From contig JBFXLE010000001.1 of the NCBI GenBank assembly GCA_050173015.1, positions 279,077-343,076 on the forward strand: 64,000 nucleotides of DNA, given 5' to 3'. The position numbers and the translations under genes were made by a program. The stretch is from Calditrichaceae bacterium (GTDB taxonomy: Bacteria > Calditrichota > Calditrichia > Calditrichales > JBFXGD01). Every line of letters begins with the position of its first letter. Position 1 is the stretch's first letter. Below are positions 13,269 to 30,383 of the stretch, in pieces. Below the pieces are notes generated by a model. The model was not told the origin of the DNA. It did no database searches and was given only the letters and a program-made list of their open reading frames with translations.

Positions 13269-14669
13269 TCACTGCCCGGATTTTATATTAAACATATTTT
13301 GAACACCGTATCCCGCCAAACTGACCATCAATCCCGGGAAGAACGGCTCAAGTCCGAATGGATAATCGGGCTGGCCATCTAATGTATTCACTTGGCCGAG
13401 TACAAAAAAAACAAGAGCCACCGCAAAACTCAGACTCATGACAAGCATAGTCGCGTTGGAACTTATTCGCCAACGCGGAAAATAAGCCGTTACCAAAGGT
13501 AAAAGCAACGGTGGAATAAACAGGCTCCCCAGATTGTACCAGATTTCAATGACCGATGGCATCAAAAATATCAGAATTAAGGAAATAACCGCGGTTATAA
13601 TCAAGCCGATTCTTGTATAAAGTGTGACTCTTTCATCACTGTTATCATCATTCCATTTCCAGATAATATCCCTTCCAAATGTAAGAGCGGACAGAAACGT
13701 ATAACTGTCAACGGTTGACATGATAATCGCAAGCAGCCCCATAAAGAATATGCCCTGAAAAACAGGCGGCAGCAGATGCTGCGCGAGCATGGGATAAGCG
13801 GTCAGCGGATCAATTCCCGGTAAAAGAACAAACGCGTATAAGCCTGTCAGCATCGTCAGCATATCAAAAATAAACCAGAAACCGATGGAAATAAAAATTC
13901 CTTTTTTCGCGGTACCCGGTGTTCTTGCCGCGGCGCATCTTTGATGAAATCCCGGATCAATGAATGTCCAGCTTGCAATCAGAAACCAGACAATAAGACT
14001 TTGAACCGACAGACCCCCCGTCACGTTTTTATGTGGGGCGTCCAGGTGAGAAACCAATTTTTCTAAAGGCATTCCATCGGTGAATGCATAAAAGGCCAGC
14101 AGCAAAAAGCCGGTGAACATTAGAATGAACTGAAGTTTGTCGGTCTGAACGACCGACCGGAATCCACCCCAGTAAACATAAATGATAGAAAATAATGTGC
14201 CGGCGACGGTGCTTACAATAAAGGAAAGGTGAAACAAATGCTGGAGAAGCGCAGCTACCATTAAAATATACGGCGCCGGAGTAGTCATTATTACCAGAAA
14301 GAGGCTCCCCAATATTCCGGCAGGGCGGTTATATGTATTGTATAGCATATCCGGAATGGAATAATTATTGGCGCTTCTGATTTTAGGAGCCAGGAAAAAA
14401 GCAAATAATCCGGCAAAAATATAATATGGCAATCCAAAAACAATCCAGGCGGAAATCCCAAATGAATACACAAACTCACCCACACCCAAAATGCCGCCGT
14501 ACCAGGTGGTCACCAGTGTGGCGACGAACGCGGGGACGCTTAAAGAACGGCCACTTAGCAGAAACTCATCGGAATCGGCGTTCCTTCGATACGATTTGAA
14601 TCCGATGACCAGCAATAATAAAATATATATAATTACAGGAATCAGAATTGGGAGATTAAGTTCATTCAT
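13269..14669 (-). CDS. sodium:solute symporter (SSS) family protein, probably thiamine or precursor uptake
   Basis: FLLSGRSL, WGGFRSVVQTDKLQF, QRCAAARTP, AIIMSTVDS; last gene of the TPP-riboswitch operon. Confidence 0.85.
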   Translation of the reverse strand: MNELNLPILIPVIIYILLLLVIGFKSYRRNADSDEFLLSGRSLSVPAFVATLVTTWYGGILGVGEFVYSFGISAWIVFGLPYYIFAGLFAFFLAPKIRSANNYSIPDMLYNTYNRPAGILGSLFLVIMTTPAPYILMVAALLQHLFHLSFIVSTVAGTLFSIIYVYWGGFRSVVQTDKLQFILMFTGFLLLAFYAFTDGMPLEKLVSHLDAPHKNVTGGLSVQSLIVWFLIASWTFIDPGFHQRCAAARTPGTAKKGIFISIGFWFIFDMLTMLTGLYAFVLLPGIDPLTAYPMLAQHLLPPVFQGIFFMGLLAIIMSTVDSYTFLSALTFGRDIIWKWNDDNSDERVTLYTRIGLIITAVISLILIFLMPSVIEIWYNLGSLFIPPLLLPLVTAYFPRWRISSNATMLVMSLSFAVALVFFVLGQVNTLDGQPDYPFGLEPFFPGLMVSLAGYGVQNMFNIKSGQ

Positions 14670-15297
14670 TATTCAGCATTTCATATAAAAACAGCTTGCC
14701 GGAATCGAAAGAAACATGCCCGACTTCTTTTTCATAAACATTACTGACACCGATAAATGAATCAGGAAAAGATTTCCCTTCCACCGGATATCTGAAGCCG
14801 TCTAACACCAGGTTTTTAATCGGATTTAAAGAAAACATAGAAACAATCATACCAATTCTACCCCGAAGCGAATGATTTCCAGGGGAAAGCAGGCTCATTC
14901 TTCCATAATTATCATAGATCACCAGAGGAACGCTGGTTTCGTATTCCTGAAAAAGAAGAATATTCGCGATAGTATGGTCAATCCGTTTACCGAAAGAAGA
15001 AAAAATCTTTATCAGAACAGGGGAAAGCGAAATGGCAAATTCAATCGATTTTTGCATATCTGTCGAATTCTGATCAGGTCTCAAAATAAATTCTGATTCA
15101 GAAAATGTGTTTTTGAGCTCATCGGAAATGGAATCCATATCGCCGACGATATAATCGGGATGAATATCGAGCTCACGGCATAAAAGCGCTCCCCCGTCGG
15201 CGGCAATGATCACCGAAGCATCCTTCAGATTATCACGTGACCAATCCGTGGTGAGGCTTTCGCCGTTAGCGATGATTGCAATGATTTTTCCTGCCAA
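14662..15297 (-). CDS. thiN: thiamine diphosphokinase
   Basis: AADGGA, GDMDSI, DQNSTD, GKRIDH, GFRYP, GVSN. Confidence 0.92.
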   Translation of the reverse strand: MAGKIIAIIANGESLTTDWSRDNLKDASVIIAADGGALLCRELDIHPDYIVGDMDSISDELKNTFSESEFILRPDQNSTDMQKSIEFAISLSPVLIKIFSSFGKRIDHTIANILLFQEYETSVPLVIYDNYGRMSLLSPGNHSLRGRIGMIVSMFSLNPIKNLVLDGFRYPVEGKSFPDSFIGVSNVYEKEVGHVSFDSGKLFLYEMLNNE

Positions 15298-15316
15298 TTG
15301 ACTGTTCCTGTTTTAG

Positions 15317-17851
15317 TTATAATTCAACCTGTATCGTCGTATAATAATTTCGGCCGGCGGCGGGATAATAATAATTAACATCGGACCAGCTATCATAATA
15401 CCCCGCTGTCTCGTATTCTTCGTCAAACAGATTATTAATCTTTAATGTCAGGCGAAATCCCGGGAAGCGCGATGATTTCGGAAACCGGTAAGAAAACATG
15501 GCATTCGCTGTGGTAAACGGATCTATTCTCCGTGATTCATTCTCTGTGTTATCCAGAAATTGTTTGCCCACATGCTGAATGGATAAGGATGATGTTAAAT
15601 TTCGAATATCGGCCGAAATTTTAATATTACCGATTAATTCAGGAAATCCGGCAATAGTTTTATCTTTAAAATCAACCGGAGTTGTTTCACCTGTTTCCCA
15701 GTCATATTCATTTTGTGTGAAATTCCCAAAATAATTCTGGCTAAACGCCAAATTACCTCCCATGGTAAAGTATTTACCGAGAGCCGCGTTCGCGGAAAAT
15801 TCAATTCCCCTGTGAATCGTGCTTTCCGCGTTACCCTTTATCGGGAATCCGTCTTTATCGACTCCGCCAAGCGGAATAATTTCATTACGGAAATCCATCC
15901 AGTAAATATTTATAGCAGCTGACAGGACCGATGACCGGTAGCCGATACCAAACTCATAATCCAGCAATTCCTCGGGGTCAATATAAGGATCATCCCATTC
16001 TACTTTTGTCACATTCCCGTTGACCCGGACAGTGTCACTTTTCGCGAATAATGGCGCTACTCCAAGGTCATCGGGACCGGCAAAGGCATCGTAAAGATCG
16101 TCATCCGAAGGCTCGCGTTGCGAGTAGGATACATTACCGTATAAATGAATCTTGTCATTAATCAGATAGGTGACGCCGATCCTCGGGCTCAAAAAATGGT
16201 AATCAAGCGAATAGGTGTTAATTTTATCGCCCTGAAACAGCGCGGTAGGCTGCTGTTCAAAATTCTGATTTTTATATTCATAAAGAAGATTACTCATAAT
16301 ATTTATTTTGGGTGAATAGTGGTAAAGATAATTATAGAAAGCGGAAAGATTTACCCTGTCACCTCTATATTCGTAATATTTACGGTCCGGATCATATTCA
16401 GACGGGATATTTTTAGCCCAGATTACTTTTCCGAAATGATGACTGTCAAATGTATAGCCGGACACTCCCATTGTAAGATCACCGGAATCGAGTTTCCAGT
16501 CGGTTTTGCTGATGAGGCCGTATTGATTTTTTTGCACCCATTTCTGCCTTACCAGGTCTGTAGAATTGACCGTATAGTATCCTTCATCTCTGACCAATTT
16601 GCCGTTATGGGATTCGTAATAGTCCAGCGAATCCGCGCCAAATAGAGCCGGATCTGCTGTCAGATAAGGCGTCATGCCAAAAGCGGATAAATCTTTATTA
16701 ACCTTATAATTTTCATAATATCCCTCACCCCGTATATAATAGGCTATGTTTTTCCATTCAAGTCTTTCTGAAAGCCGCCATTCATTACTAATTTCATAGT
16801 GAGGTTGGTTAAAGTCATCCACATCATTCTTGTACGCGGATGCTTTATATTTTCGATCATTTTTGAGAATAGCTTCGGGCACTCCGTCCCAATCCGGATG
16901 GGTTCTTTCCGGCCCGCCGTAAATATTGATTTTTGTAACCATGTTTTCATCATAGCGGGCGGCGCCGATAAAATAGGCCCACAAATCAGAAGCAGAATTA
17001 TCTCTGAATCCGTCGGAAGTAATTTTGGAGAACCGGCCGTAAAAGGAATAGGTCTCAGCCACAATACCCGATTTATATTCAGCCGAGAACTTACGTGTGT
17101 TATAGCTTCCGTAACCATATTGGGCGGAAATGTTGCGTTCTCCGGTAAATTGAGATGTATTGATGTTGATGGAGCCGCCGAATGTTGATGATCCGTAAAC
17201 GCTGCTTCCAACACCGCGCTGTACCTGTATATCCTGAATACTTTCAGCCAGATCGGGCATATCGACCCAGTAAACCTGATGGTCTTCAGGATCGTTCAGG
17301 GGGATATCATTAATCATTACGCCGATTCTTTTCTGGTCAAATCCTCTTATCTTTATAAATGAATACCCGAGAGCATCACCGGTAAGTGAATACGAAAAAG
17401 TATTGGGAAGTTCACTCAGCATCATCGGAATGTCGCTTGCGGTATAATTGTCTTCGATTTCGGCTCTCGTCACATTGCTGAAAGTGACAGGTGTTTCGCG
17501 TTCCCTGGCTCGGGTTCCGGAAATGACAATGGTTTGTCCATCGAGAATTTCAGGTTGCAAATTAAAAATTATTCCGTTTAACGGTTTGTCTGAGATATTG
17601 AGCCGTTTTTTTGCCGGGGTATAACCCAGGTAAGACGCGGATAGCATGTACGCGCCTTTTTCAGGGAGCGTCAGGTTAAAATATCCGGAATCATCGCTGG
17701 AGGCGCCAATGGACATCCCTTCCACCAGAATATTGGCGCCAATCAAGGGTTCTCCGGTTTGGGCATCCTGAATATAGCCGGTAATTTGGACAGGTTGACT
17801 GTAAAGATAAGTAAAACTAAGTAGTAGAATGATAATCCTGGTGAATTTCAC
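15317..17851 (-). CDS. TonB-dependent receptor, probably for thiamine
   Basis: signal peptide, CarboxypepD-like N-domain, plug (IRGFDQKRI..INDIPLND.ED, QRGVGSS), NNLFDEEY C-terminus; GTG start with AAGGAGG; downstream of TPP riboswitch. Confidence 0.9.
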   Translation of the reverse strand: MKFTRIIILLLSFTYLYSQPVQITGYIQDAQTGEPLIGANILVEGMSIGASSDDSGYFNLTLPEKGAYMLSASYLGYTPAKKRLNISDKPLNGIIFNLQPEILDGQTIVISGTRARERETPVTFSNVTRAEIEDNYTASDIPMMLSELPNTFSYSLTGDALGYSFIKIRGFDQKRIGVMINDIPLNDPEDHQVYWVDMPDLAESIQDIQVQRGVGSSVYGSSTFGGSININTSQFTGERNISAQYGYGSYNTRKFSAEYKSGIVAETYSFYGRFSKITSDGFRDNSASDLWAYFIGAARYDENMVTKINIYGGPERTHPDWDGVPEAILKNDRKYKASAYKNDVDDFNQPHYEISNEWRLSERLEWKNIAYYIRGEGYYENYKVNKDLSAFGMTPYLTADPALFGADSLDYYESHNGKLVRDEGYYTVNSTDLVRQKWVQKNQYGLISKTDWKLDSGDLTMGVSGYTFDSHHFGKVIWAKNIPSEYDPDRKYYEYRGDRVNLSAFYNYLYHYSPKINIMSNLLYEYKNQNFEQQPTALFQGDKINTYSLDYHFLSPRIGVTYLINDKIHLYGNVSYSQREPSDDDLYDAFAGPDDLGVAPLFAKSDTVRVNGNVTKVEWDDPYIDPEELLDYEFGIGYRSSVLSAAINIYWMDFRNEIIPLGGVDKDGFPIKGNAESTIHRGIEFSANAALGKYFTMGGNLAFSQNYFGNFTQNEYDWETGETTPVDFKDKTIAGFPELIGNIKISADIRNLTSSLSIQHVGKQFLDNTENESRRIDPFTTANAMFSYRFPKSSRFPGFRLTLKINNLFDEEYETAGYYDSWSDVNYYYPAAGRNYYTTIQVEL

Positions 17852-18756: not shown

Positions 18757-20532
18757 ATGCAGTCCATAAAATCTGTTTTGGTTGTTGAGGATGATGAAGC
18801 TATACGTTTAGCTATGTCGCGTATTCTTGACTTGACAGGTGAATATGAAGTTATTTTGGCTGAAGACGGTAAAGTCGCGTTAAAAAAAATGGAAAATTTT
18901 GTTCCTGATATGGTCATATCAGATATCAGTATGCCGGAGATGGATGGTATCGAGTTATGCAGGAAAATACGGGGGAATGAGATCACCAGGACTCTGCCAT
19001 TTGTTTTCCTGACCGCTAAAAAGGAATTATTAGTAGAAGGAATGAAAGCCGGCGGCGATGATTTCATCAACAAACCGTTTAAGGTTGATGAAGTACTTGC
19101 AAAAATTGAAGCTATTTTTAGAAGGGTCGAAAATTCCAGACAGCAGGCCAATGAAATTAAGGGAAATCTCTCGGAGTACGCTTTTGAAGATATACTTGAA
19201 TTGTGCCATCGTGAGAGTATCAGCGGTGAACTTACACTTCAAAAAAGCGGGGAAACGGGGATTATAAAACTCGAACGAGGCGATATAACAAATATTCAAT
19301 ATAAGGGGCTGGCAGATGATGAAGCCCTGGATATTCTGAGGGGGTGGGGAACTGGTATCTTTGTCATCAGGACCGGCGGGATGAAGCTGAAGTCGGGTTT
19401 TAAATTGTATAAACCGGATGAACACGATTTAACCGAACCCGTTCAAATTGCCAGGAACACATGGTGGATAGGATACCGGAATCCTGATACGCTGCTTCAG
19501 ATGAATGTATATCTGCGGCAATTTCCGAGCGGTGAAAAAAAAATCAATTATCTGATCGATCCCGGCGCGCCGGTTGATTTTCCTGTTATCTCAGAAAAAA
19601 TTTCGAAATTGGTAGGGAGTATTTCTCATATACATTTATACAGTCTGAATAATCCGGATCCGGATGTGTGTATGAACAGCATGTTTATAAGAAAAGCAAA
19701 CAGAAAGGCGATTTGTCTGACAACTGAGGATAACTGGCGGTTGATCTCACATTATGAAATTAATCCGCAGAGCGTTAAGCTTACAAATACGTTTAAGGAC
19801 TGGAAAATGTCTTTAACAACCGGGCATGACATACAATTTATACCGGCTCCGTTTGCGCCCGGGAAAGGGGCCTTTCTTATTTATGACTTAAACTCCCGCG
19901 TGCTTTTTACGGGGGATTTGTTTGGAGGAATCAGTGACGCGGGAAGAATAAATACACTGTACGCGGGAGACGAAGACTGGGAGGGAATCAGGGCATTCCA
20001 CCAGTTTCACATGCCGGGTCGCAGAGCGATATCCCAAGTTCTGGATGAGATAAAGACGCTCAATCCTGCGCCTCTTATGATCGCGCCGCAGCATGGTAAT
20101 ATTATTAGAGGTTCGCTGCTAAATGAATTCCTGGAACGTCTCTACTATCTTGATGTCGGCGTGGATCTGATTGGCAAAGAGAGCAAATCACCGATTGCGG
20201 AATTATGTATGGAAGCATCAAACGAGTTAATTGAAGAAGCGCTCTCGTTTATGACCAAAGAACGGATTATATCCAAGCTGAATTCAAATGCAAAATTGAA
20301 TTCCATCTGCACATTTAGGGATGGATTGATCGAAAAAATACACAACAGCCCTGATCTTGTTTTTGGAGAATTAAGTATGAGTCTCATTGAAAACGAACCC
20401 ATCACGACAATGAATCACTTAAAATCACTTGCATTGAAAATTGCGTTTGCCAAAGGCCTGCAGGCTCCGTCTCTGGATTGGGAAGGTACGGAAACCACAC
20501 TAAAAAAATTACCTGATCATTTTTTTGATTAA
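18757..20532 (+). CDS. response regulator: REC + DUF4388/PATAN-like + ODP-like MBL-fold domain (degenerate metal site)
   Basis: VEDD / SDISMPEMDG / LTAK / KPF receiver; KGNLSE..EDILEL..SGEL..GDI DUF4388-like; LIDPG, PDPDVC, TGDLFGG, FHQ.HMP, IAPQHG MBL/ODP-like. Confidence 0.8.
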   Translation: MQSIKSVLVVEDDEAIRLAMSRILDLTGEYEVILAEDGKVALKKMENFVPDMVISDISMPEMDGIELCRKIRGNEITRTLPFVFLTAKKELLVEGMKAGGDDFINKPFKVDEVLAKIEAIFRRVENSRQQANEIKGNLSEYAFEDILELCHRESISGELTLQKSGETGIIKLERGDITNIQYKGLADDEALDILRGWGTGIFVIRTGGMKLKSGFKLYKPDEHDLTEPVQIARNTWWIGYRNPDTLLQMNVYLRQFPSGEKKINYLIDPGAPVDFPVISEKISKLVGSISHIHLYSLNNPDPDVCMNSMFIRKANRKAICLTTEDNWRLISHYEINPQSVKLTNTFKDWKMSLTTGHDIQFIPAPFAPGKGAFLIYDLNSRVLFTGDLFGGISDAGRINTLYAGDEDWEGIRAFHQFHMPGRRAISQVLDEIKTLNPAPLMIAPQHGNIIRGSLLNEFLERLYYLDVGVDLIGKESKSPIAELCMEASNELIEEALSFMTKERIISKLNSNAKLNSICTFRDGLIEKIHNSPDLVFGELSMSLIENEPITTMNHLKSLALKIAFAKGLQAPSLDWEGTETTLKKLPDHFFD

Positions 20533-20547
20533 TATGGGAGAACTGAT

Positions 20548-21612
20548 TTGCGAATCGCGTTAATCACCTCCTGGCCTATGGATGAAAGAATCGGCAGCGG
20601 AGTGGTGAGGATGTTTCGGGGGCTGAATGAGGGATTTAAATCCAACGGACATCAAAGTATCATTGTTCACCCTGATTATGATGAATCAGATCCGCTAAAG
20701 CTGGCGAATCGCAGACTTGCATATAACCGGCGGCTGAAAGATAAAAAGTTTTCAGATTTTGATCTGATCATCGCCAGCGATTTTGACGGTTTTACATTGT
20801 CGGGTGAGGTACTGAACAGATTTGTCGTTATCAGCGCCGGATTAATGACCGAGTTAGTGGAATTTGAGGAAGGCAGTCAAAAAAAGATTATCAGGCATCT
20901 GTCCTGTCGGGAAAAACAAAACCTGATGCAGGCGCAAAAAATCATAACACCTTCCAAATACTGCGCCGATGCGGTAAACAGGTTGTACGGCATTTCTAAA
21001 GAAAAAATATATCAGGTTCCGCTTGGTATAAATTTTAATGAATGGGATCATTATCTTAATAATTTCAAAGTAGTGGCGAAGGAAGGCATCAATATTTTAT
21101 GTGTAGCGCGTCAATACCGGCGTAAGGGAATCAATGATCTTCTCCTGGCGTTCTCTATGGTACGGAGAACGGTAACGAATGCTTCTTTGTCGATTGTAGG
21201 CGGCGGCCCGGATGAGGAACGAAACAAACAAATCGTTCAGGAACTCGGGCTTAATGATTCGGTCAAATTTTACGGTGATGTACTCAACAGGGCAGTGATG
21301 GCGTCATTTTATAAAAAAGCTGATATCTTTTGTCTTCCCAGTTATCATGAAACCTTCGGACTAGTTTTTCTGGAAGCAATGGCCGCCGGGTTACCGGTTG
21401 TCGCCTACTCATCAACCGCTATTCCGGAATTAATTGCTTCCGAAGAAGGGATTCTTTGTGAAAAAGGAAATATTAACGCGTTAGCCTATCGTTTGATTGA
21501 TCTTTGTAAAAATGTAACAAAAAGGGAACAATTAGGCGCGGGCGGCATCAAAAAAGCGCAGTTCTATAAATGGGATACCACATCAGCAAAAATTGCCGAA
21601 ATATGCGGGTAA
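20548..21612 (+). CDS. glycosyltransferase family 4 (GT-B), candidate pteridine glycosyltransferase
   Basis: ARQYRRKG, ADIFCLPSYHETFGLVFLEAMAAGLPVV (EX7E); TTG start with GGGAG RBS; substrate inferred from context only. Confidence 0.85.
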   Translation: MRIALITSWPMDERIGSGVVRMFRGLNEGFKSNGHQSIIVHPDYDESDPLKLANRRLAYNRRLKDKKFSDFDLIIASDFDGFTLSGEVLNRFVVISAGLMTELVEFEEGSQKKIIRHLSCREKQNLMQAQKIITPSKYCADAVNRLYGISKEKIYQVPLGINFNEWDHYLNNFKVVAKEGINILCVARQYRRKGINDLLLAFSMVRRTVTNASLSIVGGGPDEERNKQIVQELGLNDSVKFYGDVLNRAVMASFYKKADIFCLPSYHETFGLVFLEAMAAGLPVVAYSSTAIPELIASEEGILCEKGNINALAYRLIDLCKNVTKREQLGAGGIKKAQFYKWDTTSAKIAEICG

Positions 21613-21651
21613 AGATCGGCCCGGATTAAAGGAAGGGGATATATAATCTTA

Positions 21652-22077
21652 ATGGAACAAAATTTAACGATAAGTAAAAAGTTTGAATTTTCAGCCAGTC
21701 ACCGTTATTGGAGAGAAGACTGGTCGGAGGAAGAAAATATCCGTCACTTTGGTCTTTGCACAAGCCCATATGGTCATGGCCACAATTATGAACTTCATGT
21801 GACCATCAGCGGAAAAATTGATCAGAGAACCGGCATGCTCATCAATTTAACGGATTTGAAAAAAACGGTCAAAACAATCATTGAGCAATTTGATCACAAG
21901 TTTTTAAATTTGGATACTCCTTATTTTAAGGATATAATCCCGACGACCGAAAATATTGCCCTGGTGCTTTTTCGCTTAATTGATGAAAAAATTTCTGGAC
22001 GCGATAATATCAGGCTCGAACGGATCAGATTATATGAACGTCACGATCTTTACGCGGATGTCCGGAGGAGCATATAA
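21652..22077 (+). CDS. 6-pyruvoyl-tetrahydropterin synthase family protein (PTPS-II-like), copy 1
   Basis: FSASHRYW, CTSPYGHGHNY (CX5HGH), FDHKFLN, PTTENIA, LYE. Confidence 0.88.
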   Translation: MEQNLTISKKFEFSASHRYWREDWSEEENIRHFGLCTSPYGHGHNYELHVTISGKIDQRTGMLINLTDLKKTVKTIIEQFDHKFLNLDTPYFKDIIPTTENIALVLFRLIDEKISGRDNIRLERIRLYERHDLYADVRRSI

Positions 22078-22496
22078 TGACTCCGGAAGTAAGTTTGAGC
22101 CGTTCATATATATTTAGCGCCGCGCATCGTCTTCACTCATCTGTTTTATCAGAATCTGAAAATATTGATGTTTATGATAAATGTAATAACTTTAACGGTC
22201 ACGGACATGATTATACATTAGAAGTGACTGTCGCGGGTAAACCGAATCCCAATACGGGTATGATAATTCCTTTACCATTATTGGATGATTCCGTAAATTC
22301 GCTGTTAAAACAAATGGATCACCGGCATCTTGATATGGAGGTCGGATATTTTAATACTCATATATCCACCGGGGAAATTATTATTCAGTATTTATGGAAA
22401 GAACTGGAGAGAAGAATCCCTGACGGAAAGCTGTATCACTTAAAGCTGTGGGAAACCAATAATAATTATTTCGAAATCGGAAAGGAGAATATATAA
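22077..22496 (+). CDS. 6-pyruvoyl-tetrahydropterin synthase family protein (PTPS-II-like), copy 2
   Basis: [25 protein letters not shown] (CX5HGH, animal-PTPS-like), DHRHLD, WETNNN. Confidence 0.88.
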
Positions 22497-23065
22497 TGGA
22501 AGGAATGGAAGGGGCGGTAAAAACAATTCTGCAGGATATCGGAGAAGATCCGTCCCGTCAAGGATTGGACAGAACACCGTTCCGCGTGGCAAAAATGTAC
22601 CGTGAAGTGACAAAAGGGTACAAGATGGATCCTGAAAAACTGATTAACGGCGCTATCTATGATGTTAAATACGATGAGATGGTTGTAGTGGCGAATATTG
22701 AATATTATAGTTTGTGTGAGCATCATCTCCTTCCTTTTTTCGGTGTGGCCCATGTGGGCTACATTCCTAATGGTAAGGTTGTGGGACTGAGTAAAATTCC
22801 ACGGCTTGTTGAGATGTTTGCAAGGCGGCTGCAAGTCCAGGAAAATATGACCCAGCAAATAGCGGATACGATCAATCATTATCTTAATCCGCAAGGAGTT
22901 GGGGTGGTCGTGGAAGGTCAGCACATGTGCATGATGATGCGCGGTGTGCAGAAAGATCAGGCCAAAATGATCACATCGGCAATGATTGGCGATTTTAAAG
23001 ATGATGAAAAGACCAGATCGGAATTCTTACATTTAATCAGGAGTGAACGTGTTACCGGTTTCTAA
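22496..23065 (+). CDS. folE: GTP cyclohydrolase I
   Basis: [48 protein letters not shown]. Confidence 0.97.
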
Positions 23066-23759
23066 ATTAGCGATTGTAACCGGCGCCAGCCGGGGTATTG
23101 GCGCGACCATCTCAAGAGTTCTTGCCGAGCATGGCATGGGTGTGTTAATGCTGGCACGATCCGAGCAGGGATTGAGCGATGTTTCAAACTATATCCAGGC
23201 CGAAGGCGGATACCCGTTCGTGCTGCCGGTTGATCTGAGTCTGGCCTCTGATGTTGAAAAAGTGGTACGATTTGTGGATCAATTTGAAGGAGATTTGACA
23301 ACTGTGGTACATAATGCCGGCATCGCCCGGGTAGGCAAAATTGAGAACCTGTCCCTTGCTGACTGGCGGCGGGTGCTTGATATGAATCTGACCGCGCCGT
23401 TTATGCTGACTCAAAAGCTTATCCCAAAAATGAAATCGGGGGGGCAATTTATTTTTGTGAATTCTGTCGCCGGAAAAACAGCTTTTCCTGAATGGGCGGC
23501 CTACAGCGCGTCAAAATTCGGTCTGAGAGCTTTTGCCGACACTTTGCGTCAGGAAGTGAGATCAAAAGGCATCCGTGTAACCACCATTTTCCCATCCGCG
23601 GTCGATACAAAACTCCATGAAGATCTTCCCTATGACTGGGACAGGTCGAAGATGCTGAAATCGGTGGATGTGGCGAATGCGGTTGTATATTGCATTAAAC
23701 AGCCGGCTTCAATGAATATCAATGAAATTGATATGGAAAATATGGCGGGAATATTCTGA
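23043..23759 (+). CDS. SDR oxidoreductase, candidate sepiapterin reductase
   Basis: [29 protein letters not shown]; overlaps the folE 3' end; specificity inferred from context and recalled similarity to bacterial sepiapterin reductases. Confidence 0.8.
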
Positions 23760-23768
23760 GATTCTGAT

Positions 23769-23807
23769 AAAAAAAAGCCCGGCGCGATTATGCGGCCGGG
23801 CTTTTTT
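23769..23807. terminator. bidirectional intrinsic terminator
   Basis: A8-GCCCGGC...GCCGGGC-T6 between convergent SDR and trpB2. Confidence 0.85.
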
Positions 23808-23809
23808 AT

Positions 23810-25174
23810 TTATGGTACCTTCGGAAGGTCCTTAATGGCATTCAGAGCCCGTTCAATCTCCTCTTCCGGGAGGACATGATCGATCAACTGTTTATCAAAA
23901 TACCGGTCGTATGATGCCATATCAAAGTGCCCGTGTCCGCTGAGATTAAACAGAATGGTTTTCTCTTTTCCCTCTTCACGCGCTTTTATCGCTTCGTCAA
24001 TGGCCGCTTTGACCGCGTGAGATGATTCGGGCGCGGGAATAATACCTTCCGTGCGTGAAAATGTAATCGCCGCGTCAAATACTTCCAGCTGTTGATATGC
24101 GCGGGCGCGTATGATGCCCTCATGATGAAGCTGACTCACTAACGGTGCCATCCCGTGATAGCGTAATCCACCCGCATGAATAGCCGGAGGAACAAAATCG
24201 TGTCCCAATGTATGCATCGCCACCAGTGGCGTTAATTGGGCGGTGTCTCCAAAATCGTACGCGTAAGGTCCGCGGGTAAGGGTCGGGCAGGAAGAGGGCT
24301 CAACGGCGATGATATCAATATTTTTACCGTTTATTTTATCACGGACAAAAGGAAACGACAGACCGGCAAAATTACTTCCGCCTCCCACACAACCAATGAC
24401 GACATCGGGATAATCATTAACCATCGCCATTTGTTTTAAGGCTTCTTCACCAATAATGGTTTGATGCATCAAGACATGATTCAAAACGCTTCCGAGTGAA
24501 TAGTTGGTATCCTCACGGGTGGCTGCTTCCTCAACCGCTTCGCTGATAGCGATTCCAAGACTTCCCGGTGAATCGGGATTCTTTTCAAGGATCTGTCTGC
24601 CGGAATTGGTTTCAGTACTGGGACTGGGAACGACCGTCGCCCCCCATACATGCATCATGGATCTTCTAAACGGTTTTTGCTCGTAACTTACTTTTACCAT
24701 AAACACTTTGCATTCAAGACCGAAATAATTACAGGCGAGAGCAAGCGCGCTGCCCCATTGGCCGGCTCCTGTTTCGGTGGACAAGCGTTTGATGCCCGCT
24801 TGTTTATTGTAATAAGCCTGAGCGATGGCCGTATTTGGTTTGTGACTTCCGGCAGGACTGACACCTTCGTATTTATAATAAATGCGGGCAGGTGTTTTAA
24901 GTGTTTTTTCCAGGCTTTTTGCTCTTATTAACGGTGACGGTCTCCATTGAAGATAAATATTTAAGATTTCTTCCGGTATCGGGATAAACTGATTTGTGGA
25001 AACTTCCTGTTCGATCAATGACATCGGAAATAGAGGCGCTAAATCCTGCGGGCCGATCGGTTGTCTGGTACCCGGATGTAAAGGTGGTTTAGGCGGTGAC
25101 GGCAAATCCGCGCAGATATTGTACCATTCCCGTGGTATATCATCTTCTTTTAGTATTATTTTGATTTTTCCCAT
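23810..25174 (-). CDS. trpB2: TrpB-like PLP enzyme (tryptophan synthase beta, type 2)
   Basis: [54 protein letters not shown]. Confidence 0.95.
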
Positions 25175-26491: not shown

Positions 26492-28372
26492 TTATTGTTT
26501 ATCGAGAATATTCTCGATTTCATCCATAATCCGGTTCATTTTCTGCATGGCAAGGTCGAACGGTTCGGAAGTAGTCATATCAATTCCGACTTTTTTCAAA
26601 ATTGGAATCGCGTAGTCGGAAGAACCCGCGCTAAGAAATTCAAGATAACGGTCTCTCATTTCGGGACCGCCGGTCAACATTTTCTCCGCGAGCGCGCTTG
26701 AGGCGCAGAATGATGTGGCGTATTGAAAAACGTAAAAATTATAATAAAAATGGGGGATATACGCCCATTCAATTCCATAAAGATCGTCAATGACGGTAAC
26801 ACCCTGATCATGACCGTAATACTGTTTTAAAAGATCAAGATAGACTTTGCTCAGGGCTTCGCCGGTCAATGTTTCGCCTTTTTCAGCCATATCATGAATT
26901 TTTAGTTCAAACTCCGCGAACATGGTTTGGCGGAACAGTGTGGTTCTAAAACCTTCCAGATAGCTTCCGAGAAGAGATAGTCTTTTTTCAGGATCCTTAA
27001 TCTGCTGCAATTCATAATCGATCAGCAAAGCTTCATTGGAGGTTGACGCGACTTCCGCCAGAAAGGTCGGATATTGAGAATCGACATACGGCTGTTTTTT
27101 GTTTGAATAATAACTATGCATGGTGTGGCCAAGTTCGTGCGCCAGGGTGCTTACGTCATCATATTTCCCGTTATAGTTCATCAGGATGTATGGGTGGACA
27201 TCGTAAGACACGCCTTCGGAATACGCGCCCGATCGTTTTCCGGTGGTCGGATACATATCAATCCAGCGGTTATTGAAAGCGATATCAAGTGTGGCGAGAT
27301 AGGGGCTTCCAAGGGGCTTGAGGGCTTCCATGATCGCCTTTTGGGCTTCTTCAACGGTAAATTTCATATCCACTTCTTTAACCAGTGAAGGATACATATC
27401 ATAATATCTCAGCTCATCCACACCGAGCATACGTTTTCTCAACTTCAGATAACGGTGCAGGGTGGGAAGGTGTTTATGAGTACTCTCAATAAGACCGGTA
27501 TAGACAGTAACCGGGATGTTATCGGAATCCAGCGCGCTTTCCAGGGATGAAGTGTAATTGCGCGCGTTTTTGTAGAACATATCTTTTTTGATCTGCGAAT
27601 AAAGTTGGGTACCAAAGGTGCGGTTATATTTATTAAGAGAACCAAAAAATGTTTCAAAAACTTTTTTCCGGTCTTCACGAACATTGCTGGCCCGGTTGAG
27701 TGAATATCCCGCCGCGTCAAGATATACTTCTTCTCCGTTCGCTAAATTGATAGTCGGATACGGGAAATCCGCGTTGCTGAAAATGCTGTAAATATCATCC
27801 GGAGATCCGGCCATAATTCCGGCATCGGCGATGAGTTTTTCTTCGCCGGGACTCAAAGTATGCGGTTTAAGACGCTGGATATCGCTGATGTACTGCCTGA
27901 AAGTTTTTAGCTTTGGTTCGGATTTGAAAAAACCGTCAAGTTTTTTTTGTTCAATAGATAGGATTTCGGGCCGGATAAAAGAACTGGCTGTTTGAAAGTC
28001 CGTGCCCAGCTGGCTGATTTCCTGCTTCATGGCGAGCGCTCCGGATTCTCTGGTATCCTGATCGGAGAGCATCATCGCATAGGCGTAAAGACGCGCGAAC
28101 TCTTTGTCAACGCTAAAATAATAATCCAAACCCTTGTACAGGTCGCTCGCTGAAGTTCCAAGTTTCCCCTTGAGTTCAGAGAATTTATTCAGCGATGAGG
28201 CCAGGGCGTTTTTCTGAGCCGTCCAATCCTCATTTGATTTATAGAGATCCTGCAGATTCCATTTCATGTTTTCAGGAATCTGGTCTCTCGTAAGGTCTTT
28301 TTCTACGGCCTGCAAATCCGCGGCAGCCAGAAAAAACGTGATCATAAGAAACACTCCAATCAATTTATTCAT
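26492..28372 (-). CDS. pepF: oligoendopeptidase F (M3B) with signal peptide
   Basis: KWNLQDLY, GKRSGAYS, HPYILMNY, HELGH, AEVAST, IPHFYYNFY. Confidence 0.93.
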   Translation of the reverse strand: MNKLIGVFLMITFFLAAADLQAVEKDLTRDQIPENMKWNLQDLYKSNEDWTAQKNALASSLNKFSELKGKLGTSASDLYKGLDYYFSVDKEFARLYAYAMMLSDQDTRESGALAMKQEISQLGTDFQTASSFIRPEILSIEQKKLDGFFKSEPKLKTFRQYISDIQRLKPHTLSPGEEKLIADAGIMAGSPDDIYSIFSNADFPYPTINLANGEEVYLDAAGYSLNRASNVREDRKKVFETFFGSLNKYNRTFGTQLYSQIKKDMFYKNARNYTSSLESALDSDNIPVTVYTGLIESTHKHLPTLHRYLKLRKRMLGVDELRYYDMYPSLVKEVDMKFTVEEAQKAIMEALKPLGSPYLATLDIAFNNRWIDMYPTTGKRSGAYSEGVSYDVHPYILMNYNGKYDDVSTLAHELGHTMHSYYSNKKQPYVDSQYPTFLAEVASTSNEALLIDYELQQIKDPEKRLSLLGSYLEGFRTTLFRQTMFAEFELKIHDMAEKGETLTGEALSKVYLDLLKQYYGHDQGVTVIDDLYGIEWAYIPHFYYNFYVFQYATSFCASSALAEKMLTGGPEMRDRYLEFLSAGSSDYAIPILKKVGIDMTTSEPFDLAMQKMNRIMDEIENILDKQ

Positions 28373-28432
28373 AAAACTCTCCCACTTTAATAAAGTAATA
28401 TACCGTTTGCAAAGAACAACCAGAATATTAAT

Positions 28433-28467
28433 AAAAAATGGCTGAAGATAAAGTTATCTCCAGCCAT
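28433..28467 (-). terminator. intrinsic terminator after pepF copy 2
   Basis: minus strand ATGGCTGGAGATAA...TTATCTTCAGCCAT followed by TTTTT. Confidence 0.75.
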
Positions 28468-28481
28468 AAATTCAGCTCGAA

Positions 28482-30383
28482 TTATTCATTCAAAAGCGAT
28501 TCAACCTGATCCAGCAACGCATCCATCAATTTTATGGTTCTTACCACCGGATCGGCGGTGCTCATATCCACACCGGCTTTTTTAAGTGTTTCCATCGGGT
28601 ACTCACTGCGGCCGCTGCTAAGAAAATTAATAAACCGGTCGCGCGCGGTATCGCCTTCTTCCATAATTTTGGACACAAGCGCTGAGGAGGCTACGAAACT
28701 GGTGCTGTACTGAAATACATAGTAGTTATAATAGAAATGCGGAATTCTGCTCCACAAGGCCTTATTCTCCTGATCCATGACAAAATCGGGACCATAATAT
28801 TTCTGATAAATTTCACCAAATAAATCATCCAGCTTATCCGCCGTCAGGGCCTCTCCGTTTTCAACCATTTCATGGCTGCGCAATTCAAATTCCGCGAATA
28901 CGGCCTGGCGGAAAAATGTTCTGCTGAATTTATCGAGATATGAATTTAACAAAGCTAATTTTTCTTCCTTCGTCGGAGCGTTATCGATCAGGTATTGCTG
29001 CAAAAGCGCTTCATTTGCCGTAGAAGCCACTTCCGCGAGAAAGATCGGATAGTCACCGTAAACATAAGGCTGATTATTGATGGTGTAATAGGTATGAAGC
29101 GCGTGTCCCATTTCGTGCGCCAGTGTAAACACATCGTAAAGTGTGCCATTATAGTTCATCAACACATAGGGATGGACGCCATAGGTACCGGATGAATATG
29201 CCCCAGAACGTTTTCCCTTGTTCTCATAAACATCGACCCAGCCTTCATTAAATCCTTTTTCCAGGCTGGCGATATAATTACTTCCCATCGGCTGCAATCC
29301 GTCAATAACCAGTTTAATCGCCTGATCCCATGTATATTCGCTGGTGGCGCTTTCAAATAGCGGGGCTCTAAGATCATAATCATGCACACCGTCTTCCAGT
29401 TTTAATATTTTTTTACGAAGCGCGACATAACGATGCAGCGGCTCGAGATTTTCATTAAGAGTCTTGATCAGTGTATGATAAACTTCAACCGGGACGGCGT
29501 TTCGGTCAAGCGCGGCTTCGACGGTTGATTTGTAATTGCGTGCGCGGGCGTTAAAAATATGACTTTTTACCGTGGATGAATAACTGGCGGCAAGCATATT
29601 GCGATGCTGAATATAAGGAACATATAGGCCTTTGTATGAATCCTCGCGGAGACGGCGGTCGGATGTCTGCTGATATTTTCCGTATAATCCGTTGGTCAGC
29701 TGAATATCGTTGTTGTTTTCATCTTTAATCACGGGAAATACGATATCCGCGTTATTCCAGACTGAGAAAATTTCCCCGGCGGCGCCTCTGACTTCACCGG
29801 AAAGCGCCATCAACCGTTCTTCCTTTTCAGACAAAGTATGAGCTCTGGTCCGGGTCATATCTTCGATATAATGTTTGTAGAGGGTAAGCCCTTTTTCATT
29901 CTTGAAGAATTCATTTAATTTTTTTTCAGGAATTGCCAGCAGCTCCGGTTCAAAAAAGGAAACGGTTTCGCTGTATTCAACATAAAGACCTCTGATTCTG
30001 TCATAAAGTTCCTGATATTTGGCAACCGATTTATCCTGGTCGTTTTTCATGTGGGCATAGGCGTAAAGTTTTCCGATGGAAACTTCCAGTGTGTGCATTT
30101 TGCTGATAAATTCAACCAACGTCTTTCCGGAAACGCCAAGCTTTCCTTTGTACGCCCCTAATTCCGGAGCGGCTTCTTTTACACGGATGAACTCATTTTC
30201 CCAATCCTGGTCGCTTGAAAATATATCTTCTAATTTCCATTTAAATTCATCAGAGATTTCGGATCTGGTTTTTTGTTTGGTCTCCATTGGCTCCTTTCCG
30301 ATGGTTTGTTGGTGTAGAATGAATATTGTAAAAAGTAAGAATAAAATGATTTTGAAACGATAATGAGCGTCTTTCAGTTTCAT
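28482..30383 (-). CDS. pepF: oligoendopeptidase F (M3B), second paralog
   Basis: KWKLEDIF, GKRSGAYS, HEMGH, AEVAST, IPHFYYNYY; AGGAGG RBS. Confidence 0.93.
   Translation of the reverse strand: MKLKDAHYRFKIILFLLFTIFILHQQTIGKEPMETKQKTRSEISDEFKWKLEDIFSSDQDWENEFIRVKEAAPELGAYKGKLGVSGKTLVEFISKMHTLEVSIGKLYAYAHMKNDQDKSVAKYQELYDRIRGLYVEYSETVSFFEPELLAIPEKKLNEFFKNEKGLTLYKHYIEDMTRTRAHTLSEKEERLMALSGEVRGAAGEIFSVWNNADIVFPVIKDENNNDIQLTNGLYGKYQQTSDRRLREDSYKGLYVPYIQHRNMLAASYSSTVKSHIFNARARNYKSTVEAALDRNAVPVEVYHTLIKTLNENLEPLHRYVALRKKILKLEDGVHDYDLRAPLFESATSEYTWDQAIKLVIDGLQPMGSNYIASLEKGFNEGWVDVYENKGKRSGAYSSGTYGVHPYVLMNYNGTLYDVFTLAHEMGHALHTYYTINNQPYVYGDYPIFLAEVASTANEALLQQYLIDNAPTKEEKLALLNSYLDKFSRTFFRQAVFAEFELRSHEMVENGEALTADKLDDLFGEIYQKYYGPDFVMDQENKALWSRIPHFYYNYYVFQYSTSFVASSALVSKIMEEGDTARDRFINFLSSGRSEYPMETLKKAGVDMSTADPVVRTIKLMDALLDQVESLLNE

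Follow-up and report, generated by a model that had tools for sequence, protein, structure and literature searches.

The window analysed here is a 64,000-nucleotide stretch of contig JBFXLE010000001.1 from a Calditrichaceae bacterium (phylum Calditrichota; assembly GCA_050173015.1), and the subject of this work is a cluster of five genes on its forward strand that had been predicted to direct the synthesis of a glycosylated pterin. The first gene (20548..21612; Pfam PF00534/PF13439) encodes a GT4 glycosyltransferase of the GT-B fold, a candidate pterin glycosyltransferase. It is followed after a gap of 39 nt, without overlap, by two genes of the family of 6-pyruvoyl-tetrahydropterin synthases (PTPS), encoding PTPS-II subunit A (PTPSa, 21652..22077; assigned by its CX5HGH motif, PDB matches and tree position) and subunit B (PTPSb, 22077..22496; assigned by motif and tree). 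The last two genes are folE, encoding GTP cyclohydrolase I (22496..23065; TIGR00063), and a gene for a classical short-chain dehydrogenase/reductase (SDR; 23043..23759), which is a putative sepiapterin (pyruvoyl-tetrahydropterin) reductase on the basis of its catalytic residues and similarity to PRK07454. An AGGAG sequence overlaps the first GTG of the SDR gene, and translation of this gene therefore probably starts at the second one (23049). The coordinates, the TAATG overlaps at 22077 and 22496 and the overlap of folE with the SDR gene were all found in the sequence as predicted, and so was a terminator: a hairpin flanked by A- and T-runs at 23771-23807 folds at -24.3 kcal/mol (z -4.22; 0 of 200 shuffles equally stable), and was not picked up by a simple consensus terminator scan. 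The nearest named relative is a Calditrichaceae metagenome-assembled genome with 91-97% protein identity.

Both PTPS proteins contain the motif CX5HGH (Cys36, His42 and His44 in each), and CxxxxxHGH is described as the PTPS-II signature of COG0720 in a portion of PMC5041015. A search of the PDB with PTPSa gave human and rat PTPS as the best matches (E 3e-32) and 6-carboxy-tetrahydropterin (CPH4) synthase at E 2e-7. Rat 1B66 and human 3I2B are the closest solved sequences, and the zinc His triad, the Cys, the Asp-His pair and the two Glu of the mammalian enzyme are present. The scores of the two proteins on the QueD model TIGR03367 were 70.8 and 50.6 bits, relative to a cut-off of 89.25. Taken together with the tree described below, these results place both proteins in PTPS-II and not in QueD, as the original prediction had it, and we infer from this family membership that they make 6-pyruvoyl-tetrahydropterin.

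Two other identities were considered and rejected. A QueD (PTPS-I) identity does not fit proteins that have no CxxxHGH motif and fall under the TIGR03367 cut-off, and a PTPS-III identity does not fit proteins with no Glu for an ExxHGH motif in a genome that has folB and folK. The genes folB, folK and folP are encoded elsewhere in this genome, and therefore a PTPS-III bypass is not needed. A separate set of queuosine genes, the presence of which had been raised as a check, was also found: a third PTPS-family protein with CX3HGH and 98.3 bits, which is over the QueD cut-off, is encoded beside queE and queF on another contig, in a queD-queE-queF operon. The expectation that automated annotation would mislabel the window genes as queD or folate genes was not borne out, in that neither protein reaches the QueD cut-off and the names given are ambiguous rather than wrong; the JGI label on relatives is "PTPS/CPH4 synthase". 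We also observed that in subunit B of the Methylomirabilota-type clusters (L065 7393-7866; L071 3558-3989) the motif is CX3HGH, spaced as in QueD, even though this subunit groups with the PTPS-II B proteins, so that annotation from the motif alone would miscall it.

In a tree of 39 PTPS domains, PTPSa grouped with the cyanobacterial N-domains and the first gene of the Methylomirabilota-type clusters (support 97/91), in a clade that also includes one long-branch Bdellovibrio row. PTPSb grouped with the cyanobacterial C-domains with weaker support (85/87), and QueD stood apart. Judged from the tree, PTPSa and PTPSb correspond to the two domains of the cyanobacterial PTPS-II, split into separate proteins. 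PTPSa was found in 42 of the 78 genomes of the phylum, across all of families f1-f5, and in 0/36 of families f6-f8. In 41 of these 42 loci PTPSb is the next gene after PTPSa and is itself followed by folE; the remaining locus is cut by a contig end.

Buergisser and colleagues are said to have reported in 1995 that the catalytic triad of PTPS is intersubunit, and Asp81 and His82 are taken here as its Asp-His part. In subunit A, Asp81-His82 was present in 42/42 sequences, Cys36 in 37/42 and Glu129 in 39/42. In subunit B, the Cys, the three zinc His and the two Glu were present in 41/41, the triad His82 in 24/41 and Asp81 in 28/41; His82 is replaced by Tyr or Phe in 17/41, and Asp81 is changed in 13/41, to Glu in 8 of these. 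The A proteins of the metagenome loci L062, L065 and L071 have no Cys and keep the Asp-His pair. Each site of PTPS lies between three monomers in a homohexamer with six equal sites, as described in part of PMC7546909, and two subunit types are the difference here from that mammalian homohexamer. Because the catalytic residues of A and B decay complementarily, a heteromeric PTPS-II is suggested, and it is quite likely that A and B form a heteromer in which the Cys/zinc site of B is activated by the Asp-His of A.

Several observations count against this interpretation. Both PTPS subunits of the window keep every catalytic residue, and a heteromer is therefore not forced in this genome. The cyanobacterial fusions have the reverse arrangement, with an N-domain that has no triad His and a C-domain that has it, and the genomes with complementary decay are kin rather than independent cases. 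A predicted complex of three A and three B chains scored 0.81, relative to 0.67 for a control, and speaks neither for nor against a heteromer.

The FolE protein scored 256.7 bits on TIGR00063, over the cut-off of 181.6. The folE gene of the cluster is the only copy found by tblastn of the genome, in a search in which FolE2 was not among the genes sought, and therefore it also feeds folate and queuosine synthesis. In 32 of the 42 genomes with the PTPS pair, the gene after folE encodes an SDR; in the other 10 no SDR was matched, partly because of contig ends. Among 17 cluster SDRs, the catalytic Asn115, Ser141, Tyr154 and Lys158 are invariant and R39, which we take as a sign of NADPH preference, is nearly so. 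The best NCBIfam model for the window SDR is PRK07454 (207.9 bits, under the cut-off of 234), a cyanobacterial family whose genes adjoin folE in 10 of 14 cyanobacterial loci and to which Synechocystis sll0330 presumably belongs. A profile of the 17 cluster SDRs placed the Chlorobium sepiapterin reductase 2BD0 third of 135, with 209 bits relative to 213 for the top match. The predicted linkage of the SDR to folE and PTPS-II and its likeness to SDRs of the sepiapterin reductase type are thus borne out by synteny, NCBIfam and profile ranks, and the SDR is a plausible sepiapterin reductase. Weighing against this assignment, the top match of the profile search is clavaldehyde dehydrogenase, the window SDR alone places 2BD0 only 25th of 97, and the well-covered GT4-bearing genomes G010 and G014 gave no SDR match. 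In addition, sll0330 is annotated as a sepiapterin reductase without confirmed activity, according to a section of PMC4836186. A separate Ignavibacteria-like locus labelled Bacillota (L026 1622-2997) has PTPS-II and folE followed by two tandem SDR genes.

The GT4 protein was modelled with a pLDDT of 95.8, and the model has the GT-B fold and the GT4 donor motif. The residues Arg56, Asn60, Asp78, Asp80, Gly81 and Glu107 in the N-terminal part are invariant in its family. The original prediction had likened the protein to the pteridine glycosyltransferases of cyanobacteria and green sulfur bacteria, but neither profile scores and tree nor structure supported its membership of that family. We built a profile of the cyanobacterial enzyme BGluT from 18 of 27 full-length homologues recovered from genomes, one of which was confirmed against 5ZE7 and 9V0L. 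The window GT4 aligned to it over its full length at 19% identity, and it scored 35.6 bits where full-length members scored 576-649. In the reverse comparison, BGluTs scored 42-62 on the GT4 profile and unrelated GT4s scored higher (up to 198). A 59-row tree gave BGluT and its nearest relatives as one clade (support 100) and the window GT4 family as another (97), and no BGluT-type match was found in this genome at 1e-35. The top structural match was MshA (Z 38.4, rmsd 2.5, 338 aligned) and the BGluT of Pseudanabaena, PsBGluT 9V0L, was the 49th (Z 30.0, rmsd 2.8, 308 aligned), fold likeness being uninformative as to the acceptor. No pterin glycosyltransferase was present among the listed Foldseek matches or the top 60 PDB sequence matches. 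Because the GT4 lies outside the known pteridine glycosyltransferase family, the evidence for a glycosylated pterin is the gene context.

Members of the GT4 clade are named from Chloroflexota, Nitrospinota, Gemmataceae and Methylomirabilota. When the best 8-10 candidates per genome were scored, sampling of the phylum of G079 gave one genome with the clade among 201, and sampling of the phylum of G078 gave none among 251; none of seven single genomes had a member at clade-level scores. Replacement of BGluT by the GT4 in cyanobacteria was considered and not supported, since the cyanobacterial genome G219 has the starts of both; the BGluT-type start has an open frame of no more than 108 residues. 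Among 923 candidates, none was a longer protein with the N-terminal part of the GT4 fused into it, which is weak evidence. As a separate observation, eight genomes of the phylum (L244-L249) have GT4s closest to PDB 7FG9/8X3Q, the sister group of BGluT, and none of these has the GT4 clade of the window.

In the phylum, the GT4 was found in 17 of 78 genomes, all of which have the PTPS pair, and it lies directly before PTPSa in 16 of them; in G010 the two genes are on different contigs. The GT4 and SDR genes co-occur in 14 of the 17 and in L065. The metagenome sample consisted of 80 loci kept among the matches listed, at least 19 of which belong to the GT4 clade, and among those matches a PTPS gene lies immediately downstream of the GT4 in 5 of the 19 members. 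L065 has the full order GT4-A-B-folE-SDR, and L071, which belongs to Methylomirabilota by the name of a cluster member, has the cluster order from GT4 through folE. In L062 and L068 the GT4 is followed by PTPSa, within which the contig ends, and in L072 it is followed by a PTPS-II gene with CX5HGH. The predicted synteny of the GT4 with the cluster therefore holds both in Calditrichota and in these five metagenome loci. The adjacency of GT4 and PTPS-II occurs in three separate GT4 subclades (Calditrichota and two from metagenomes) at about 30% identity, and no other Pfam-named neighbour recurs across the subclades; the GGDEF gene and the POT transporter that flank two of the loci are confined to that sister pair. 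Because it repeatedly sits directly before PTPS-II, the GT4 is a candidate new pterin glycosyltransferase, and this repeated linkage somewhat favours a pterin as its acceptor.

These results are consistent with the following pathway. FolE, the family membership of which is clear, would convert GTP to dihydroneopterin triphosphate. PTPSa and PTPSb, as a heteromeric PTPS-II in which the zinc/Cys/Glu site comes from B and the Asp-His of the intersubunit triad from A, would then form 6-pyruvoyl-tetrahydropterin. The SDR would use NADPH to reduce the two side-chain carbonyls to a stereoisomer of tetrahydrobiopterin (BH4), either erythro or threo; that it reduces both is a step we regard as likely. 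[quoted passage not shown] Overall, the balance of evidence leans toward an operon that makes a biopterin-type tetrahydropterin, which the GT4-bearing lineages would probably glycosylate.

A pathway of this type is known from Synechococcus and Chlorobium (PMC5683033, and parts of PMC3546692 and PMC4133829). The BH4-alpha-glucoside pathway of Synechococcus sp. PCC 7942 consists of GTP cyclohydrolase I, a two-domain PTPS-II, sepiapterin reductase and BGluT (5ZE7/5ZER). The Calditrichota operon has the same enzyme classes, with A and B matching the N- and C-domains, an SDR closest to the folE-linked PRK07454 and a GT-B/GT4 fold. It differs in that PTPS-II is encoded by two separate genes and the Asp-His pair is retained in A, the GT4 falls outside the clade of BGluT, all genes lie in one operon, and no BchH was found in the host. 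With Chlorobium tepidum and its L-threo-BH4/tepidopterin pathway, it shares an SDR-type sepiapterin reductase and, in the proposed product, a pterin glycoside in a non-cyanobacterium. Kong and colleagues are said to have found in 2006 that the PTPS-II of Chlorobium is single-domain. The Chlorobium glycosyltransferase CtPGT is AviGT4-like (PMC5683033), its printed N-terminus differs from that of the window GT4 in a comparison made by eye only, and a short CtPGT motif is absent from this genome. The motif and the folE/SDR neighbourhood are as described for the PTPS-II subfamily of COG0720 in portions of PMC5041015 and PMC5445326. In those portions a tandem two-gene PTPS-II heteromer was not seen, and the term "glycosyl" is absent from the former and used only for another family in the latter. 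In the literature searches, the scope of which did not extend to supplements, no paper turned up that describes this operon in either Calditrichota or Methylomirabilota. In a pathway of known type, the new elements are the split heteromeric PTPS-II suggested by the residue patterns, a GT4 clade unrelated to the known pterin glycosyltransferases, and hosts that are not phototrophic.

An alternative with an appreciable but clearly minor share of probability is that this is an ordinary BH4 pathway and that the GT4 is a co-transcribed neighbour, which glycosylates a small polyol, a lipid or an envelope precursor in the manner of MshA, BshA or PimB. This would agree with the closest folds of the GT4 (MshA, sucrose-phosphate synthase, GlgM and BshA) and with its not being an orthologue of BGluT or CtPGT. 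The distribution of the GT4 agrees with it as well, and weighs against a pterin acceptor: 25 of the 42 pair-bearing Calditrichota genomes have the operon without a GT4 match, 14 of the 19 metagenome clade members show unrelated neighbours or short contigs with no PTPS gene nearby, and the GT4 of the cyanobacterial genome G219 also has no PTPS gene nearby. A mere neighbour is not what would be expected from a position directly before PTPS-II in three subclades as divergent as those described above, with no other neighbour recurring among them, and we continue to prefer a pterin as acceptor.

Rather improbably, the product could be a glycosylated pterin other than a BH4 glycoside, if the SDR reduces one carbonyl or forms another isomer, or if the GT4 uses neopterin, 6-hydroxymethylpterin or lactoyl-pterin. 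The ranks of 2BD0 resolve the identity of the SDR only moderately, and two of the 10 pair-bearing genomes in which no SDR was found have the GT4 and are not contig-cut. Glycosides of pterins other than biopterin are known, such as cyanopterin and solfapterin (in a part of PMC3546692). The joint presence of GT4 and SDR in most GT4 genomes and in L065 speaks against this alternative, and the hydroxylase and dehydratase of this genome, described below, fit a BH4-like product. Finally, a folate or queuosine operon with QueD or PTPS-III proteins, or PTPS proteins that act as independent homohexamers, is very improbable: the single folE must feed both routes and the window proteins keep all catalytic residues, but their motifs and scores are not those of QueD or PTPS-III, true queD-queE-queF and folB-folK genes lie elsewhere, and the residues decay complementarily in relatives.

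A glycosylated BH4-type pterin remains our preferred product. The genome encodes a long-form aromatic amino acid hydroxylase of 581 aa with a large C-terminal extension (L034 1423-3168, G000 C5; PRK14056, 695 bits) and intact iron-ligand motifs, and a pterin-4a-carbinolamine dehydratase (PCD) over its family cut-off. The "unknown role" given to the pterin by the original prediction was thus only partly upheld: this genome has an intact hydroxylase and PCD, but 30 of the 42 operon-bearing genomes show no hydroxylase, among them the single-contig G006 and every one of the 22 genomes in family f3. The long-form hydroxylase was found in 12 genomes of the phylum, 12/12 of which have the PTPS-II pair, and in only 2 of the 17 GT4 genomes. 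A short hydroxylase is present in eight genomes of f6/f8 that have no PTPS-II pair, which counts against the preferred reading. PCD occurs in 48 of the 78 genomes and does not track with the operon. Neither an NO synthase nor a domain of the fatty-acid-hydroxylase/AGMO type was found in this genome, which is 97.5% complete.

The host had been described as apparently non-phototrophic and peptide-fermenting. No BchH was found in the genome, which makes a chlorophyll-based phototroph unlikely and upholds the first description. The second is too narrow, because the genome has open reading frames (ORFs) in which motifs of heme-copper oxidase and of cytochrome bd occur. With hydroxylase, PCD and these oxidase-motif ORFs all present, free BH4 has an ordinary client here; it would probably serve the long-form hydroxylase and be recycled by PCD. 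In most GT4 relatives the glycoside would be the end product, because no hydroxylase was found there. A glycoside, if made, is therefore mostly found where no known client exists, in a pattern confounded by kinship. Speculatively, its likeliest role would be as a soluble and stable pool for redox or antioxidant purposes, a function that has been proposed for other glycosylated pterins.

Biopterin is rare in bacteria, as stated in part of PMC13259868, and pterin glycosides are said in a section of PMC3546692 to have no known function. Nearly all known producers of pterin glycosides are phototrophs, and here a compact operon is found in a non-phototroph. We put forward tentatively, and with somewhat less than even confidence, that the GT4 clade arose independently as a second family of pterin glycosyltransferases, that together with a heteromeric split PTPS-II it yields a new tetrahydropterin glycoside in non-phototrophs, and that in family f3 (0/22 with a hydroxylase) this product serves an undiscovered pterin-dependent function. 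The results bear on a widespread, unannotated GT4 clade as a possible new enzyme family, on whether PTPS-II can work with its catalytic residues shared out between two kinds of subunit, and on the function of a BH4-type pterin in bacteria without the known client enzymes.

Upstream of the cluster on the same strand is a gene (18757..20532) assigned by Pfam to a response regulator-DUF4388-ODP protein, with ODP of the metallo-beta-lactamase (MBL) fold. It ends 15 nt before the GT4 start, and the transcript is therefore probably of six genes with this gene as the first. In 21 of the 42 Calditrichota loci, some of which are contig-cut, this gene was found to precede the pterin cluster. The di-iron motifs of the ODP domain look intact in few relatives, are strongly degenerate in most, and are partly degenerate in the window protein; an oxygen or iron sensor at the head of the operon is possible. 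In two genomes (L191 and L192, also L015 and L016), another protein, of 388 aa and secreted-looking, replaces the GT4 between this gene and PTPSa. Downstream, a trpB-like gene (23810-25174, reverse strand; TrpB-like PRK12391) is convergent with the operon, and the hairpin at 23771-23807 is probably a bidirectional terminator common to both.

Two further groups of genes on the reverse strand of the window were named by eye. At 13269-17851, a TonB-dependent receptor, a thiamine pyrophosphokinase-like ORF and a sodium:solute symporter form one run, probably for thiamine uptake, that is kept upstream in L010 and L012. At 26492-30383, two oligoendopeptidase F-like ORFs lie in tandem, and the N-termini of both resemble signal peptides.

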